This document shows, piece by piece, positions 4,734-41,889 of a DNA stretch of 64,000 bases. This stretch comes from an uncultured Acidobacteriota bacterium (lineage in GTDB: Bacteria; Acidobacteriota; UBA6911), in contig CAWEJX010000001.1 in the NCBI GenBank assembly GCA_963809485.1, positions 192,001-256,000 of the forward strand, read 5' to 3'. The notes beneath the pieces were generated by a model that was not told where the DNA came from, made no database searches, and was given only the letters and a program-made list of their open reading frames with translations. The translations under genes were made by a program, and so were the position numbers. Within the stretch, counting starts at the first letter, position 1, and every line of letters begins with the position of its first letter.

Positions 4734-4910
4734 CTAACAGCAGCGATTGGGCCGGGCGTATTTTTCATTCAGCCGGGAAACGTAAAACTCCCTTGCGGTT
4801 GGGATCCGCATTTCAGGATGCCTGGCACGCAGATGCTCGCAATAGCGCGCATATTCGCCTTCTCCCAGGACCTGTCCCAGAAGGTTCCACCATTTTCGGA
4901 GCAATCGCAT
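4734..4910 (-). CDS. YbdD/YjiX-family small protein (CstA-associated)
   Basis: GEGEYARYCEHLRARHP...EFY...RCC C-terminus; directly downstream of cstA. Confidence 0.85.
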   Translation of the reverse strand: MRLLRKWWNLLGQVLGEGEYARYCEHLRARHPEMRIPTAREFYVSRLNEKYARPNRCC

Positions 4911-4939
4911 TTCCCCTCGCATAATTCCAAATCCGGCCA

Positions 4940-7018
4940 TCAGTCGTATGCCGTCAATCTGTACTCCGCTTCGCATAAAACCGGGATTTTGCGGCGGCTC
5001 AGAATGGCCAGCCAGTCCCGGGCGCATTCGATGAGGATGACCAGTACCATGAGAGCGAAAAGCCCGGTTACGGCAGCATCCAGGCGGTTATTGAAAATCT
5101 GCCTTTGAATCGCGCCAGCCTGGTCCTCGGGAATCTGTCCGGCCTCCATAAGCCCGCTGAGCCGGTTTGCCTCAGCCAGAAACCCGATGTGCGGGTCCGC
5201 GTGGAAAATTTTCTGATAGGCCGCTGTCTGTGTAATCAGGACAAGCCAGAGCATCGGGAGAACAGTCACCCATGCATACCGAGCTTTGTTCATTTTGATA
5301 ATGATGGTTGTCGCGACGCACAAGGCCACGACCGAAAGCAGTTGATTGGCAATCCCAAAAAGCGGCCACAGGCTGTTGATCCCCCCCAGAGGATCCATGA
5401 CTCCCTGATAGAGAAAATATCCCCATCCGCCCACAACCAGGGCGCTCGTCAGGATGACGCCGGGGTACCAGCCCGTGTGCCCCAGCGGTTTCCAGATATG
5501 ACCGAGAAGGTCCTGAAGCAGGAACCTGCCCACGCGGCTGCCGGCGTCCAGCACTGTGAGGATAAATAGGGCCTCGAACATGATCGCAAAGTGATACCAG
5601 ATCGCCGTAAAGGTGTTTCCGCCGAGAGTGCGGGCGAAAATCTGCGCCATGCCTACGGCAAGAGATGGGGCGCCGCCGGTTCTGGAAAACATGGTCTGTT
5701 CACCAACCAGATCGGTCAGATGCTGCATTTCCTGCGGGGTAACCGTGTAGCCCCACGAAGAAATCGTGGCGGTCGCCGTCACAGGATCGGCGCCCACAAT
5801 CCCTGCGGGACTGTTGATGGCAAAGTAGATGCCCGGCTGCAGCACGCACGCCGCCACCATAGCCATGATTCCGACAAAGGATTCCATCAGCATGGAACCG
5901 TAGCCGATCAAGCGGGCCTGGCTCTCCCTGGTGATCAGCTTGGGGGTTGTCCCAGAAGCGATCAGCGCATGGAAGCCGGAAATTGCACCGCAGGCTATCG
6001 TGATGAAAGCGAAGGGAAAAATTTTCCCCGAAAAGACCGGTCCCGTTCCATCCACGAAGCGCGACAATGCGGGCATTGCCAGAACCGGCCGGACCGCCAG
6101 TATTCCCAGTGCGAGAAGAAATATCGTTCCCAGCTTTATGAACGTGCTCAGGTAATCGCGCGGAGCCAGGAGCAGCCACACCGGCAATACCGATGCCGCA
6201 AATCCATACGCAATAATCATCCAGGCAATGTGCCGCGCGTCAAAGGTGAGCATTGCCGCTAGTGCGGGGACCTGGGCGATGTACTGCCCACCCACGACTG
6301 CAGCCATCACAAGCACGAATCCCAGGATGGAAGTTTCCAGCACTTTGCCCGGACGCAGGAACCTTAGGTAAACACCCATCAGGAGCGCGATCGGTATTGT
6401 CATCGCCAGGGTAAAGGTTCCCCACGGGCTCGCCTTGAGAGCATTGGTGATCACGAGCGCGATCACCGCCAGCAATATTACGAGTATGGAAATAATGGCG
6501 CACAGCGCCGTGAAGCCGGCCACCGGCCCGACCTCTTCTTTGGCAATCTGGCCCAGGGATTTCCCGTCCCTGCGCATGGACGCGAACAGGATTACAAAAT
6601 CCTGCACACATCCGCCCAGTACAGCCCCGATAATCAGCCAGAGCGTCCCGGGCAGGTATCCCAGTTGGGCCGCGAGCGTAGGTCCGACCAGAGGACCGGG
6701 ACCGGCGATGGCGGCAAAGTGGTGACCGAATAGAATCCACTTGTTGGTGGGTACGAAATCCCGGCCGTCCTCCAACCGCTCCGCAGGCGTAGCGCGGGTG
6801 TCGTCCAGATGCATCACCTTTAGCGCGATGAACCGGCTGTAGAACCGGTATGCGACGCCATAGACACAAATGGCCGCCACGATCATCCACATCGCATTGA
6901 CGGGTTCGTTCCTGCGCAGGGCCACCGCCCCCAGAGCGCCGGCTCCAATCAGGCTTACCAGAACCCAAAGCCCCGCTCGCGCGCTTTTGCCCCATCCATT
7001 GCGAAATCCAACAGTCAT
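4940..7018 (-). CDS. cstA: Carbon starvation protein A family transporter (CstA/BtsT)
   Basis: [48 protein letters not shown]; AAGGAG SD. Confidence 0.93.
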
Positions 7019-7232
7019 CTCATGCTCCTTCAAGCCCGGCAGGGAGGCTGTTAATGCAAACAAAGCCAAAAGCCTATTGCGTTCCGGAAAATATTGCAAT
7101 GATGGAATCAACGGCGCAGCGCACGCTCGCTTCTCATCGATCACCGACATATGCTGAAAAGGACTCTGACGAATCCCGATCCGTTGCAACTCAAATTTTG
7201 AGTATTCAAGGTTCGGGTGATACAGTTGTTAT

Positions 7233-7718
7233 ATGGCGCTGCGAGTCAGTGCAGGTTTGCTGATGTACCGCATAAAGGACGGGGCCTTGCAGATCTTGCT
7301 GGCCCATCCCGGCGGCCCCCTGTTTCGAAACAAGGATGATGGACATTGGACGTTACCCAAGGGGGAACCGCCCGCGGGCGAACCATTGGTTCAGGCTGCG
7401 CGGCGGGAGTTTGAGGAAGAAACCGGGATAAAACCGCCGGGAGCGCTGATCGAGCTTGGATCGATCCGGCAGAAGGGCGGTAAAATCGTCTATGCCTGGG
7501 CTTTCGAAGGCGATTACGATGATTCTCAATCCGTGCGGAGCAACACATTTGAAATGCAGTGGCCACCTGGATCCGGACGCGTTCAGAGTTTTCCCGAGGT
7601 GGACAAAGTCCGGTTCTTTTCGCTTGCCGAAGCGAAACAGAAGCTGAAAGATTCGCAGTGGCCCCTGGTGGAGCGGTTGGTGGTCACCCTGGGCACCTCT
7701 GTGAATACGGGTCTATAG
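7233..7718 (+). CDS. NUDIX-family hydrolase
   Basis: SAGLLMYR...HPGGP...PKGE...AARREFEEETG...WPPGSG...FPEVD. Confidence 0.88.
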   Translation: MALRVSAGLLMYRIKDGALQILLAHPGGPLFRNKDDGHWTLPKGEPPAGEPLVQAARREFEEETGIKPPGALIELGSIRQKGGKIVYAWAFEGDYDDSQSVRSNTFEMQWPPGSGRVQSFPEVDKVRFFSLAEAKQKLKDSQWPLVERLVVTLGTSVNTGL

Positions 7719-7721
7719 CAA

Positions 7722-8996
7722 ATGCGAGTGCTTCTGATATCAGGGAACCGGGAGGATGCGGAGATACGCGTTCCCGCTCTTGGTTTGGCCTGTGTCGCGG
7801 CAGCAACGGAGGCTGCAGGCCATGATGTAATCCTGCGGGATCTTCTGATCGCCAGAGACCCCCAGGCAGCGGTTGCGGAAGCCATCCAGGAATTCAAGCC
7901 CGATGCCGTCGGCGTTTCGGTGAGAAACCTCGACGATCAAAAAATGCGAGGCGCGCGGTTTCTCCTGGACCAGGCCCGGGACGCCGTCAGGTGGTGCAGG
8001 AATAATTCCACGGCTCCGGTGATCCTCGGGGGTGCCGGATTCAGTATCATTCCTCAGCCCGTCCTGGATTATGTGGATGCCGACATGGGAATCCAGGGCG
8101 AGGGAGAAACGGTTTTCCCGGAACTGCTCAGACGGATTCAATGGCGGGAAAAAATCGACAGCCTGCCCGGCCTTTTTCTGAGACACGGCGTTTCTCCTGC
8201 CCGGCGCGCTTTCGCCAAGGATCTGGATGCATTGCCTCTTCCGGATCCTTCACTGCTGGCGCATTCGCTTTCCGGAGCAGTGGACGCTCCCGTTCCTGTA
8301 CAAACGCGTCGCGGCTGTCCGCTTTCCTGCAGTTACTGCTCAACACCCACCATCGAGGGGAAAACCGTACGGTGGCGCTCTCCGGAATCCGTGGTGGCAT
8401 GGATGACGCGATGGGCGCAGGAAGGGTTCCGCAATTTCTATTTCGTCGACAATACGTTCAACCTCCCCCCTTCCTATGCCGCAAACCTCTGCGCGAAAAT
8501 CATTGCCACCCGGCTGGATATTTCCTGGAGGTGTATTCTCTTCCCTGCCGGGCTCGATCCGAAGCACGTGGAATTGATGGCCCGGGCCGGATGCAAGGAA
8601 GCCAGCATCGGATTTGAGAGCGGGGCCGCGGGCATGCTGCGCCGCATGAACAAGCGATTCGCCATTGGCGAAGTGAGGCGCACTTCCGACCTTCTGAGAA
8701 AGAACCATATCCGCAGGATGGGATTCCTCATGATTGGAGGGCCGGGCGAAACCAGGGACTCCGTGGAAGAGAGCCTGGCGTTTGCTGAAACGCTCGATCT
8801 GGATTCCCTGAAATTGAGCATCGGCATCCGCATCTATCCGAATACCGAGGTTGCGCGCACCGCCATGGACGAGGGGCTGATAGCCTCGGAGCGGGATCTT
8901 GTGTACCCAAAATTCTATGTCGTCCGGGATCTTGAAGAATGGATGTACGAGACGGTTGCCCGGCACATTTCAGCAAAGCCTCACTGGTTTTTATAA
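7722..8996 (+). CDS. Cobalamin-binding radical SAM protein
   Basis: N-terminal B12-binding domain (PALGLACVAA, GVSVRNLD, GEGE); RGCPLSCSYC motif. Confidence 0.9.
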   Translation: MRVLLISGNREDAEIRVPALGLACVAAATEAAGHDVILRDLLIARDPQAAVAEAIQEFKPDAVGVSVRNLDDQKMRGARFLLDQARDAVRWCRNNSTAPVILGGAGFSIIPQPVLDYVDADMGIQGEGETVFPELLRRIQWREKIDSLPGLFLRHGVSPARRAFAKDLDALPLPDPSLLAHSLSGAVDAPVPVQTRRGCPLSCSYCSTPTIEGKTVRWRSPESVVAWMTRWAQEGFRNFYFVDNTFNLPPSYAANLCAKIIATRLDISWRCILFPAGLDPKHVELMARAGCKEASIGFESGAAGMLRRMNKRFAIGEVRRTSDLLRKNHIRRMGFLMIGGPGETRDSVEESLAFAETLDLDSLKLSIGIRIYPNTEVARTAMDEGLIASERDLVYPKFYVVRDLEEWMYETVARHISAKPHWFL

Positions 8997-37493: not shown

Positions 37494-39209
37494 TTGATTA
37501 AGGGAGTCCGGCCCATCCAACAGATAGATGGAAACACTTTAGGCATCAAACAGTCCCAGCGACGGGCATTGGAAAGGACCTTTCGCAGACGCGTGTCCCC
37601 GGCACAGGTCGTTTCGCCGGAGCTGGCCAGGCATCTTGCGGTTCTCTCCAGAGAGCTTGGCAGGCAGGTCGGCGTTCTGCTTTCCCGCGACGGCATCATC
37701 CGCAACGTGATTCTGGGAGACGCCACGCATCTGGAACTCCCGGACATCGGAAGGCTGCGCGGAGGGACCGGCAGGTTCCGGGGACTCCGCCTCGTCCACA
37801 CCCATCTGCGCGGCGAACCCCTCACGCAGGATGATCTGAACGACCTGGCTTTGCTGCGGCTGGACCTTGTCGCGATGATTCAGGCGGAAGAAGACGGAGA
37901 CGCGGGCCGAATTGAGATAGCGCATATCCTGCCGGGGATTGAAAGCGAAGGGCAAAACAAAGATCCTTTCCGCAGGATTGAAGCCCGGGACATTTTCCAT
38001 TTAAATTTCAATTTCGAGGAAGAGATCCGGGCACTGGAAAGCGAGTTTTCCAGGCTCATTGGAAGACAGGCGGGCGGCACGCAGAAGGAACGCGCCCTAA
38101 TCCTTTCCATAACACCCGGCCAAACCGCATTATCCGAAATAATGGAACTCGTCCGGGCGGCGGGAGTCGAGATCGCGGAAGCCATGCCTTTGTCGGGAGG
38201 AAGGATCCATCCGCGCACGGTTGTCGGGCAGGGACGTCTCCAGCGCATTGCCCTTACCGCAATGCGCCGCAGCGCCGACGTCGCCATTTTCGACATCGAC
38301 TTGAAACCCGCGCAGGCGCGCGCGTTTGAGGACATGACCGGCTTGAAGGCCGTCGACCGGACTCAGCTGATTCTGGACATATTCGCCCAGCGGGCGCGCA
38401 GCCGGGACGGCAAGCTTCAGGTGGAACTGGCGCAACTCAAGTATTCGCTGCCTCGCCTGACCGAGGAGGACGCCGGATTGTCGCGCCTGGTGGGCGGGAT
38501 TGGAGGACGGGGTCCGGGCGAGACCGTCCTGGAGATCGGCAGGCGGAGAGCGCGCAGCCGAATACGCAGCCTGGAAAAAGAAATCGGAAAGCTCTCCAGC
38601 CAGCGCGGGGTGCGCAGGAGCCGCAGGATCCGGCAAGGCCTGCCCGTGCTCTCCATTATTGGATATACAAATGCCGGCAAGAGCACCCTGCTGAATGCGC
38701 TGACCCAAAGCCGCATCGATACGGCGGATCAGATGTTTGTCACGCTGGATCCGACTTCGCGACGGCTTCGCTTCCCCCGCCGCGGCAACGTCATTGTCAC
38801 AGATACGGTCGGCTTCATCCGTGATCTTCCGCCGGATCTTGTCGCCGCCTTCAAAGCAACCCTCGAAGAGCTTTCCGAGGCCGACCTGCTTCTTCATGTC
38901 GTGGATGCCTCGGATCCACGCCTGGAGGTAAAAATGGAAGCTGTCGGCCGCGTTCTGACCGACCTGGACCTGGGATCCATCCCAAGGCTGGTGGTGATGA
39001 ACAAGACAGACCTGGCCGAGGCCTCAGCCGTCGAAACACTGTGCCGCCGCTACGATGCCGTAGCCGTCAGTGCGCTCAAACGTGAAGGCCTCGACCAGCT
39101 TCTGAAGGCAGCGGAAGCGGCAATGGACCGGCATCTGAATTTATCGATGGAGGATTCCCCTGCAAATTTGCCAATAGTATCCGGCGACAGCCTTGAGCCG
39201 GCGGACTAG
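37494..39209 (+). CDS. hflX: GTPase HflX (long N-terminal form); true start may be ATC at 37515
   Basis: [50 protein letters not shown]. Confidence 0.93.
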
Positions 39210-39403
39210 AGTCCGGCGGTGCCGGCTGTTTTGTCCTGTCCATCCGGCTTTTTGAAGCCCGGCCTTCGCGTCCTAGCCCTGCCCCTTTCCACTTGTGTCT
39301 CAACCTTAGGTTATGCAAAAATCAGCGCAAATTTTGTGACCATTTGAAAAGGAAGGCAATTCTGATAAAGCCGATCCTATTGCTTCGGAAAGGGAAAGCA
39401 AAC

Positions 39404-41161
39404 GTGAAAAGAAAGAATCTACTGACAAGTTCTCTGCTGCTGATTGCGGCAGCTCTGGCATTTGCCGGCCTGACGCCGCTTCAGGCCCAGCGCGGCAAGG
39501 CCTCCGCAAAACCGTTGATAACGGTCCTCAACCCGGCGATCGAAAGCAAGATGGTGGATCGCGTACCTTTGTCCCCGCGTCTGAATACGCTCGAGGGGAA
39601 AACACTCTATATGGTTGACATCGGCTGGGGCGGCCCTGATGCGGCCTACAGCGTGTTCGAGGAAATCCAGGCCTGGTTCCAGCAGAACATGCCCAGCGTT
39701 AAGACCGTCCTCAAAAGAAAGAAGGGACCTTACAGCCAGGACGATCCGCAACTCTGGAAGGAGATCGCCCAAAACGGAAATGCCGCATTGGTCGGCATAT
39801 CCGGCTGAGATGGCTGCACGTCGGCCGTGAGCCAACATGCAAAATCTCTTGAAAAAATGAACATCCCCACCGTAGGCGCCGCCGCCGCAAACATCGTGAA
39901 GTATGCGATGGGGTACGATTTTGAATACACCAACGGCATGCCCATCCGCTACGTAGGTTTCCCATTTCCCGTAGCCGGGCAGCCGAAATCCGTTCACCAC
40001 CGTTATGTATTTGAAAGCAAGGATGTTGTAAGCGGAAAGCCGATGATGACGGCCATCATCGACGCACTCACCAAGCCTTTGACGGAAAAAGAAAAGTTCG
40101 CCGGCAAACCGCCGGAAGCGATTCCGGAAAAGAGGCTTTTGGAGCCGGATACCGAAGACAACCTGCAGCAGCTCTTCAAGGACAAGGACTGGACCGACTA
40201 CTATCCCGTCACCCTTCCCACCGAAGAAAGAGTTGCCGCGATGCTCAAGGGCACCAGCCAGAAGCCGGACAAGGTCGTGAAAGTGCTCAGCTGGCCCGGC
40301 GGAGCGCGTGCGCTCACCGTGGAAAAAGCCGCGGTCTGCGCGGTCATGGCAGGAGCCAAGCCGGAGCATTTTCCCCTGGTTCTGGCCGTTTCCATGTCCC
40401 TGCCCTTCGGCAACTCCACTACTTCCATGGCGAACATGATTCTGGTCAACGGACCCATCCGGAACCAGGTGAAAATGAATTACGGCGGAAATGCCATGGG
40501 GCCGCACAATGAAGCCAATGCGGTGCTCGGCAGGGTCTTTACCCTGTTGTCGAAGACTGCGGGAGGCCTCCATGCCGGCAAGACCACCTTCAGCTCTATT
40601 GGAAGCAACCTCCAGTACAACAACGTCTGCATCGCTGAGAACGAAGAAGCCCTTCCCGCGGGATGGGATCCACTCCATGTGCAGATGGGTTTCAAGCCTA
40701 CGGATAGCGTCGTCAGCGTCGGCACCGGCTGGAGTTACATTTCCAGCGTGGGAGAAGTGCAAAGGTCCTATCCGGCGCAGTATCTGATACGGGATTACAT
40801 GAGATCTCTGGCTGCCATGGGCGGGGGCTCGATAATCCTGGATCCAACGGTTGCCGCCCTGCTGAAGGACACCCAGGGATTCAAAACCAAGGGCGAACTC
40901 AGCCAGTGGCTGGCCGATAATGTGGAAAAAACCGTTTCTTCCTATTGGGGCAATGGCGTCATTGCGACCTTTTCCGCGGCTATGGCGCTGCAGGGTCTCG
41001 AGCCTCAGGCGACTTGGATAAAAGCGCCTCCGGAAACATTGATCAAGCCTTTCAACGCCAAAGGTCTCCAGGTGATCGTGACCGGCGGTGGAATCCAGAC
41101 TACCTGGTTCGTAACCGATTTCAGACTCGGCAGAGGCACGCGGGTCGACGACTGGAAGTAA
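39404..41161 (+). CDS. Probable exported UGSC-family selenoprotein (in-frame TGA at 39806-39808, U-D-G-C) fused to a conserved C-terminal domain
   Basis: ORFs 39293-39808 and 39827-41161 share a frame and are separated only by TGA; reads GISG-U-DGCTSAVS; hairpin directly after UGA; N-terminal signal peptide. Confidence 0.75.
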
Positions 41162-41172
41162 TCAGCAGGCAT

Positions 41173-41225
41173 AAAGAAAAGCCACGTATTTTCACGGCTG
41201 CGTGAAATACGTGGCTTTTCTTTTT
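41173..41225. terminator. Intrinsic (bidirectional-type) terminator
   Basis: AAAGAAAAGCCACGTATTTTCACG-GCTG-CGTGAAATACGTGGCTTTTCTTTTT. Confidence 0.8.
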
Positions 41226-41322
41226 CCGGCCCGAATTTTGGGCGGATTTCCTGCCGCAGCGTTTCAGGCGTCTGCACCAGCCCTGATTTGAAGGTCACAG
41301 GTCGCGATTTTTTTCACCGGTA

Positions 41323-41348
41323 TGTAATAATCAGGCTATCTGCGCGTC
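41323..41348 (+). promoter_or_regulatory. ECF-type promoter (possible autoregulation)
   Basis: TGTAAT-N16-CGTC upstream of the ECF sigma gene. Confidence 0.4.
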
Positions 41349-41370
41349 ATGAGAGTCGGGGCAAACAAAT

Positions 41371-41889
41371 ATGGGAACGGCCGATAGACTCCCGGATGCG
41401 CAACCTTTCAATATGACTTCGCCGACGGAATTCGCCGCGCTTTATGAACGCAACCATGCCGCGGTCTATCACACGGCACTCCGCATCACCGGGAATCCGG
41501 CCGATGCAGAAGATGTCCTGCAAACCGTGTTTTTGCGAATACTTAGCCAGAGTGAGCGGCTCGAAGCCACCCGCTCGCCGGAGGCCTACCTGCGCCGGGC
41601 AGCGGCTAATGCCGCGATAGATCTGCTTCGACGCAGATCATCCCATGGCGAGGTCCGGCTTGAAGACAATGCCCCGCTCAGCGCCAGGGAAGAATCCGCA
41701 CTGTTAAAGGCGCAATTGAGAAATGCCGTCGCCGCGCTGGAGGAAAGCGACGCCATGCTTTTTCTGCTCCGATACGTCGAGGGGATGTCAAACGGCGAAC
41801 TGGCCGAAATGTTCGGCCAGGAGAAGAACAACATAGCCGTCCGGTTGCACCGCATCCGGCAGACTTTGCAGGCCGAAATGGACAGATAG
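41371..41889 (+). CDS. ECF RNA polymerase sigma factor
   Basis: DAEDVLQTVF region 2; region 4 EGMSNGELAE...RLHR; start may be 41413. Confidence 0.9.
   Translation: MGTADRLPDAQPFNMTSPTEFAALYERNHAAVYHTALRITGNPADAEDVLQTVFLRILSQSERLEATRSPEAYLRRAAANAAIDLLRRRSSHGEVRLEDNAPLSAREESALLKAQLRNAVAALEESDAMLFLLRYVEGMSNGELAEMFGQEKNNIAVRLHRIRQTLQAEMDR

Follow-up and report, generated by a model that had tools for sequence, protein, structure and literature searches.

A probable selenocysteine-containing, signal-bearing long-form UGSC protein gene from an uncultured Acidobacteriota bacterium and the expansion of its family within the genus

A stretch of 64,000 nucleotides from the uncultured Acidobacteriota assembly GCA_963809485.1 (contig CAWEJX010000001.1), called here the window and numbered from its first letter, was analysed for a gene located at positions 39404-41161 of the forward strand (C1:231404-233158 in the genome, where C numbers designate contigs of the assembly). 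This segment very probably represents one selenocysteine (Sec)-containing, signal-bearing gene for a long-form UGSC protein, a conclusion drawn from sequence that concerns the identity of the product and not its mechanism. The UGA at codon 135 is almost certainly decoded as Sec by the SelA, SelB, SelD and tRNA-Sec of the same genome. The gene is a UGSC-family member of the fused type already published, of which it is a variant in its U-D-G-C motif, its predicted signal peptide and a score below the equivalog cut-off. Its wider interest may lie in a radiation of Sec paralogues, most of them exported, that spans the genus, in an uncharacterised C-terminal domain and in a possible link to the GrdB/PrdB selenoproteins.

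Two open reading frames (ORFs), 39293-39808 and 39827-41161, share one frame, and the only stop between them is the TGA at 39806-39808. When this codon is read through, a single coding sequence runs from GTG 39404 to TAA 41159-41161 with no other stops or frameshifts, comprising 585 codons plus the stop, with U at codon 135. An earlier interpretation of this DNA, made from the letters alone (hereafter the sequence-only reading), had pointed out both the shared frame and the 585-aa product, and the same was obtained on re-reading. The junction reads LVGISG-U-DGCTSAVSQHAKSLEK, or in wider context ...ALVGISG-U-DGCTSAVSQHAK..., the six codons directly 3' of the TGA being D-G-C-T-S-A. The U-x-x-C centre has the form U-D-G-C, as had been stated, with the TGC at 39815-39817 (forward strand) encoding Cys138, the likely resolving Cys. 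The single coding sequence was also supported by a metagenome protein (P0002, 585 aa, 74% identity), which is contiguous, aligned over residues 1-585 and carries GISG-C-DSC at the junction.

A scan using one genome per species detected 79 homologous loci, in which codon 135 was then compared by tblastn. The codon was TGA in all of the 79 spanning alignments, which were obtained from 76 of the loci, the N-terminal part being absent in the remaining three. Identities, measured to the first 210 residues of the query, ranged from 34 to 97%, and homology was present both 5' and 3' of the TGA. The loci came from Acidobacteriota, Desulfatiglans, Gammaproteobacteria and other metagenome-assembled genomes. 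The +3 residue was Cys in 78/79 sites and Ser in one (L030), and the local motifs formed three groups: G(I/V)(S/A)G-U-D(G/S)C, GVAG-U-N(G/A)C and AIGH-U-GGC. For the proteins lacking Sec, 23 full-length homologues were taken from the representative search for covering both domains (alignment A1); the Sec column was occupied by Cys in nine of them, eight being C-x-x-C. Homologues with Cys and homologues with a conserved TGA at this codon, which the sequence-only reading had proposed as a check, were thus both found.

If the TGA were a true stop, the locus would encode an exported protein of 134 residues followed by a cytoplasmic protein of 444 residues starting at GTG 39827. This arrangement matches the gene-caller annotation, since the C-terminal ORF alone (412-447 aa) accounts for 119 of the top 120 database homologues, and N-terminal fragments of 127-164 residues ending at position 134 stand as separate database entries. 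However, the Pfam model and a modelled helix run across the TGA, GTG 39827, just 18 nt 3' of the TGA, falls within this conserved helix, and the Cys homologue P0002 is contiguous. Moreover, TAA or TAG, which had been named beforehand as one of the observations that would count against a selenoprotein, occurred in none of the 79 aligned sites. We consider a true stop highly improbable and retain the single Sec-containing gene, which gene callers split in two, as had been anticipated. An annotation fix follows, given that thousands of entries in the databases represent no more than half of the protein.

It is harder still to credit the locus as a pseudogene, in which a former Cys codon would have suffered a nonsense mutation. 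Decay does occur in the family, as indicated by seven of the 43 TGA-bearing paralogues of the same genome (described below) whose truncation or fragmentation has other causes. The same TGA is nevertheless found across phyla, with protein-level conservation on both flanks and a frame free of other stops and frameshifts. In addition, three RNA libraries from two studies yielded contigs that belong to related populations and cover parts of the gene, one of them, of 180 nt, bridging the TGA at 39770-39913. No difference from the window was located at 39806-39808 among the 40 listed of 77 contig-versus-window differences. Some stretches of the gene were uncovered in these libraries and no public run exceeded 0.40 of the sampled words; the support that the contigs lend is weak because such libraries can hold DNA.

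The Sec machinery, whose genes selA, selB, selC and selD the sequence-only reading had suggested searching for, was present in the genome: selB (391 bits), selA (565 bits), selD (346 bits) and a tRNA-Sec with anticodon TCA all exceeded the curated cut-offs. The selA gene is located on the same contig, approximately 17 kb before the window, and selD (C8:80982-81905) contains one in-frame TGA, therefore encoding a Sec-type SelD. These findings bear on a third explanation, namely that the UGA is read through with a residue other than Sec, for example by a suppressor tRNA for Cys, Trp or Gly or under a reassigned code. The available text of PMC5389517 describes tRNA-Cys opal suppressors of SelC-like type, as well as allo-tRNAs, from delta-proteobacteria and Acidobacteria, so that such decoding has a precedent. 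Against it stand the full Sec machinery with a standard tRNA-Sec, the use of TGA to end ordinary genes in this genome, some of the paralogues among them, and a hairpin close to the TGA, which is what SelB-dependent decoding needs. Suppression or reassignment is accordingly given very little probability, and Sec remains by far the preferred reading of codon 135.

The hairpin resembles a selenocysteine insertion sequence (SECIS) and extends over 39815-39841 of the forward strand, as indicated by the minimum free energy fold and by conservation in TGA-anchored sequences. Its upper stem pairs 39820-39825 with 39831-39836, and its loop, CGUGA (39826-39830), is placed 17 nt 3' of the UGA and is near-invariant among relatives; the lower stem is UGCA/UGCA (39815-39818/39838-39841). 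Across 53 TGA-anchored sequences, 74.2% of the cells were paired compared with 62.5% in shuffles, and 0/500 shuffles matched this value. Changes on both sides were observed at five of the six pairs (for example, U-A in 25 and G-C in 14 sequences at one pair), covariation was 0.189 versus 0.074, and sliding the partner strand by 1-3 columns reduced pairing to 25-43%. In the AIGH-U-GGC clade this hairpin is offset by 3 nt, which lowers the pairing count. The comparative pattern strongly supports the view that SelB-dependent decoding would be helped by this small downstream hairpin.

The N-terminal part of the protein, residues 41-196 (39524-39991, forward strand), constitutes the UGSC-family domain. 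The Pfam UGSC model PF24696 matched across the TGA (E = 3.7e-12, 47.1 bits versus a cut-off of 25), and the domain alone scored 50.3 bits. The literal U-G-S-C is absent, the family pattern U-x-x-C being retained. The C-terminal domain, termed 'Unknown_1' (approximately residues 245-585; 40136-41158, forward strand), was delimited by alignment A1, a published motif and an AlphaFold2 (AF2) model. In alignment A1 its invariant residues were P272-T273, M315-A316-G317, P324, G350-P351, N372, R377 and E412.

Several observations weigh against this reading of the gene or, in the first case, against a strict dependence on the redox centre. Neither Sec nor Cys was present at the Sec column in 14/23 of the full-length homologues, from which it follows that the C-terminal domain can function without a redox centre. 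The NCBIfam equivalog model NF041046 scored 33.5 bits, below its cut-off of 125, and the protein falls outside the equivalog group formed by the short UGSC proteins. The hairpin of the window itself is thermodynamically ordinary (z = -0.78), with 27% of the same-gene control windows folding as well, and its upper stem includes a C.A mismatch. Finally, scanning 39000-41500 against Rfam (E <= 10) returned chance-level matches only and no SECIS family.

The fused arrangement is not new. The UGSC-containing protein was among the most abundant selenoprotein families of an ocean survey (Zhang and Gladyshev 2008, PMC2398784), and the same paper (Fig. S1A) describes a 'UGSC/Unknown_1 fusion' in the selenoproteome of the Global Ocean Sampling. 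Its Unknown_1 motif, AVNGVMAGCRPEYMP...VNGP, matches residues 308-351 of the window protein, AAVCAVMAGAKPEHFP...VNGP, both by eye and in alignment A1, indicating that the fused form had already been published. The sequence-only reading was therefore correct in that the C-terminal part is a domain accompanying UGSC genes, while the novelty that it implied for the fusion was overstated, the fusion having been in print since 2008 (PMC2398784) and being very common (3531 cluster representatives at E <= 0.001). Later reviews assign no function to the family in the text accessible to us (PMC9312934, PMC13188914), so that proteins which are among the most abundant selenoproteins of environmental metagenomes (PMC2398784) are still without an assigned function, and the window gene represents their long form in a probably exported version.

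When compared with the UGSC family as represented in PF24696, NF041046 and the consulted part of PMC2398784, the window protein has the same N-terminal domain match and the same TGA-encoded U-x-x-C position, but differs in carrying U-D-G-C instead of U-G-S-C, in its length (585 versus ~145 residues) and in its predicted signal peptide. It shares with the UGSC/Unknown_1 fusion the order of the domains and the published C-terminal motif A(V/I)N.VMAG..P....P...VNGP, whereas the window protein has Ala (VMAGA) where a highlighted Cys stands in Unknown_1 (VMAGC). The published fusions were marine read fragments whose export is unmentioned in the text available; the window gene, in contrast, belongs to an Acidobacteriota lineage of soil or wetland that has undergone a large expansion of this family.

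The full-length AF2 model had a mean predicted local distance difference test score (pLDDT) of 85.6 and a predicted template modelling score of 0.83. A helix was modelled at residues 2-19 and, after it, a linker of low confidence at 22-32 (pLDDT <50). Strands and helices alternate as b-a-b-a-b-a-b in the sandwich built by residues ~62-234, where helix 136-151 has Sec135 at its N-terminus. For the latter region, the structural neighbours recovered with VIA were PurE, B12-binding, LacI-type and CheY-like domains (Z 8-9.6). The top neighbour, taken as a lead only, was chain H of 8S7V, a methyl-coenzyme M reductase (MCR) activation complex (Z 11.2, root mean square deviation (rmsd) 4.8 A, 140 residues). 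No thioredoxin was included among the 50 best VIA rows, a non-exhaustive list re-examined from Foldseek. The Sec domain therefore models as flavodoxin/Rossmann-like, at odds with the 'likely Trx-like fold' suggested in the consulted part of PMC2398784. The sequence-only reading had likewise called the UxxC motif thioredoxin-like: the motif is there, but the fold in which it is modelled is a different one.

The C-terminal domain was confidently modelled when folded alone (pLDDT 93.9) and has no convincing solved relative. It matched no Pfam or NCBIfam family, a profile search of Protein Data Bank (PDB) sequences with alignment A1 gave nothing below E 0.4, and Foldseek searches with the full model reached template modelling (TM) scores of at most 0.19. 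The best VIA row for this domain had a Z of 5.7 over 75 residues. In the ESM Atlas it was related to unnamed clusters only, plus one (score 0.88) in which 41% of the members carry PF24696. There is no clear structural match for the modelled domain, which is not proof of a new fold. Class I fumarate hydratase and 'Toblerone' enzymes of the cyanuric acid hydrolase type ranked highest for the domain model in Foldseek but were rejected as relatives (TM <=0.24, rmsd >11 A).

Residues 1-28 (39404-39487, forward strand) look like a cleavable signal peptide, as judged by inspection, the AF2 helix, the starts of homologues and hydropathy. The segment has a KRK n-region, a hydrophobic core of 18 residues (LLTSSLLLIAAALAFAGL) and the c-region TPLQA, with a predicted cut before Q29; L-Q-A before Q shows the small-residue -3/-1 pattern, both on inspection and by the hydropathy heuristic. 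P0002 has the same N-terminal layout, and homologues without the extension begin at about residue 30-40. A 13-mer with a mean Kyte-Doolittle (KD) hydropathy >=1.9 was detected within the 50 residues preceding the domain in 59/75 homologous loci. The clade of the window gene had K/R-rich n-regions, some with RRKQFL or RRNQLF and a few with lipoboxes. In the U-N-x-C and U-G-G-C clades (L045-L061 and L070-L099), twin-arginine motifs such as M(D/N)RRK(M/L)L... and MNRRKLLSLLG... were found together with weaker hydrophobic cores, which suggests that their selenoproteins would be exported folded by the twin-arginine translocation (Tat) system. Export of the window protein is well supported by sequence, in line with the signal-like N-terminus noticed in the sequence-only reading, and a cleavable signal peptide implies that the mature protein would work outside the cytoplasm.

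Release into the periplasm could be questioned, given that the signal of the window protein has KRK and not RR and that the segment might serve to anchor the protein in the membrane. The selenoprotein would then remain on an uncleaved anchor, or be exported folded by Tat instead of by the Sec route. The long core of ~18 residues, three positive charges after the predicted cut site, the RRKQFL or RRNQLF of close orthologues and the clear twin-arginine motifs of distant clades are all compatible with this alternative. In contrast, orthologues keep the residues around the predicted cut (TPLQA before Q, with Pro at -5 and Ala at -1) as (V/S/L)QA-Q, and some orthologues have lipoboxes instead, also implying export. 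We regard an anchored or Tat-exported form as unlikely, and a cleaved, exported selenoprotein as the better description. The term 'signal peptide' is not mentioned in the available text of PMC13188914, PMC9312934 or PMC1976440.

A tblastn search of the whole assembly gave 56 same-genome alignments across codon 135, of which 43 had TGA, none had a Cys codon and 13 had other residues. These paralogues are distributed over contigs C1, C4, C6, C8, C9, C12, C17, C20 and C21. According to the lengths of both halves, 36/43 of the TGA-bearing copies look intact and the other seven are truncated or fragmentary. Thirty of the intact copies passed the hydropathy test and two more had clear RR(A)F(L/F) Tat motifs; a further two were just under the line (KD 1.59 and 1.89) with a lipobox or a hydrophobic core, and two had no signal of any kind. 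Combining hydropathy and motifs, about 34 of the 36 intact copies carried export signals. Only 23 of the 43 TGA sites folded better than 90% of their same-gene control windows. Three tandem paralogues on contig C4 (342223, 344594 and 346598) read SW-U-GAAT and are without Cys at +3; no strong hairpin was detected at these sites, 74-81% of the control windows folding as well in the energy test.

To place this expansion within the lineage, PF24696 matches were compared among genomes. All of the 18 congeneric genomes searched held between 11 and 45 matches, with 35 in a genome consisting of a single contig, and the number of UGSC-domain matches per genome across the Acidobacteriota genus was 11-58. 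Twelve genomes from other genera of the class, a draw that includes the unpublished genome G049 (a non-match), had no match or one. The expansion is lineage-specific, and a binning artefact is excluded because all the 18 congeneric genomes, including the single-contig one, carry many copies. The largest bacterial selenoproteomes comprise 39 genes and at least 46 genes in the available portions of PMC9312934 and PMC12013277, respectively, so that this family alone would approach or exceed whole published selenoproteomes. The finding bears on the maximum size of a bacterial selenoproteome and on the supply of electrons to Sec proteins outside the cytoplasm. An exported UGSC branch or an expansion of this kind is not mentioned in the accessible text of the literature searched. 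At a confidence somewhat short of even, the copies could represent a lineage radiation of mostly exported Sec reductases, that is, a periplasmic toolbox with diverged C-terminal substrate domains performing GrdB/PrdB-like selenol chemistry outside the cytoplasm.

A genetic context suggestive of function was found elsewhere in the genome, on contig C12 (86000-99000; local 4811-8275, minus strand). This operon encodes a thioredoxin-reductase-like flavoprotein, a stand-alone U-G-S-C protein (PF24696, 137 bits), a DUF6282 protein and Unknown_1-like ORFs, and is flanked by DHDPS-like genes. It is the cytoplasmic counterpart of the fused gene, and its composition argues that the U-x-x-C centre may be a redox relay feeding the Unknown_1 domain. 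This sister system, with its dedicated reductase, offers a handle for reconstitution.

A second split selenoprotein gene was located at C20:1215735-1217018 (minus strand). It encodes a GRDB-like protein (PF07355) reading LLLPA-U-PGC-TRAVGAISQFIEEAGVPT, and the PF07355 model ends just before its Sec. Homologues of this protein were detected in 51 of 201 Acidobacteriota genomes, most with one TGA, a tally that includes one match in the unpublished G049. In an hhalign comparison of 118 UGSC domains with 29 GRDB-like sequences gathered by tblastn, Sec was placed on Sec over 67 columns (probability 52.6%, E = 1.4e-4), whereas alignment A1 against the single GRDB-like protein gave a probability of 3.9%. 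The Sec core thus weakly resembles GrdB/PrdB-type selenoproteins, and the possible mechanistic link would provide a handle on UGSC function.

GrdB and PrdB (PF07355) are the selenoprotein B components of glycine/sarcosine/betaine and D-proline reductases. The window protein and GrdB/PrdB share a pattern of beta-strand, U-x-x-C, helix and (L/I)E..G(I/V)PT, and the substrate-binding partner domain is separate in both. The partners GrdE/PrdA (pyruvoyl) are, however, unrelated to the partner domain of the window protein so far as Pfam tells, and GrdB and PrdB are cytoplasmic whereas the window protein is predicted to be exported. In GrdB/PrdB, Sec acts as a nucleophile and is recycled through a selenenylsulfide. 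Other selenoenzymes likewise act outside the cytoplasm, among them the Tat-exported catalytic subunit of formate dehydrogenase-N, [NiFeSe] hydrogenase and DsbA/DsbG-like proteins; FdnG and the [NiFeSe] hydrogenases are Tat substrates. These periplasmic selenoenzymes have no sequence or fold relation to the window protein, and the latter showed no domain for a metal cofactor. The consulted parts of PMC2398784 and PMC1976440 include DsbA-like and DsbG-like families among the selenoproteins that they list.

Our best guess for the function is an extracytoplasmic selenol/thiol-dependent reductase. By analogy with GrdB/PrdB, we tentatively propose that Sec135 and Cys138 would form a redox module serving a site in the C-terminal domain. 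Sec135 would be the nucleophile and Cys138 would resolve it to a selenenylsulfide; the module would serve a substrate-binding or catalytic site of the C-terminal domain, and the resulting reductase may cleave or reduce a small substrate in the GrdB/PrdB manner. The cytoplasmic relatives in the same genome would be recycled by the thioredoxin-reductase-like flavoprotein of the adjoining gene. This proposal has to be weighed against the lack of a match between PF07355 and the window protein at E <= 1 and against a profile-profile probability of only ~50% for a mechanism drawn by analogy. In addition, a Pfam scan of 60 flanking ORFs around the window gene and 15 other loci found no partner conserved across clades, and none hinting at a substrate or a periplasmic reductant.

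Among the neighbours, hflX lies upstream of both the window gene and five Acidobacteriota orthologues, and the Desulfatiglans loci have instead an aldehyde:ferredoxin oxidoreductase and a molybdopterin enzyme. A purine-rich, Shine-Dalgarno-like AAGGGA at 39390-39395 (forward strand), read directly from the sequence, is placed 8 nt 5' of the GTG and may be the ribosome-binding site. A terminator scan detected a terminator-like site between hflX and the gene (39213-39225) and, together with direct reading, a long hairpin with a T-run resembling an intrinsic terminator at 41177-41225 (forward strand), in agreement with the strong terminator reported after the gene in the sequence-only reading. 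The gene looks monocistronic because terminator-like sites are present on both of its sides. Farther downstream, the segment 41371-44327 encodes an extracytoplasmic function (ECF) sigma factor (Sigma70_r2/r4_2) followed by an anti-sigma-like protein of 806 residues (zf-HC2 plus FecR), and a FecR/zf-HC2 gene was also found downstream of the orthologue in locus L022.

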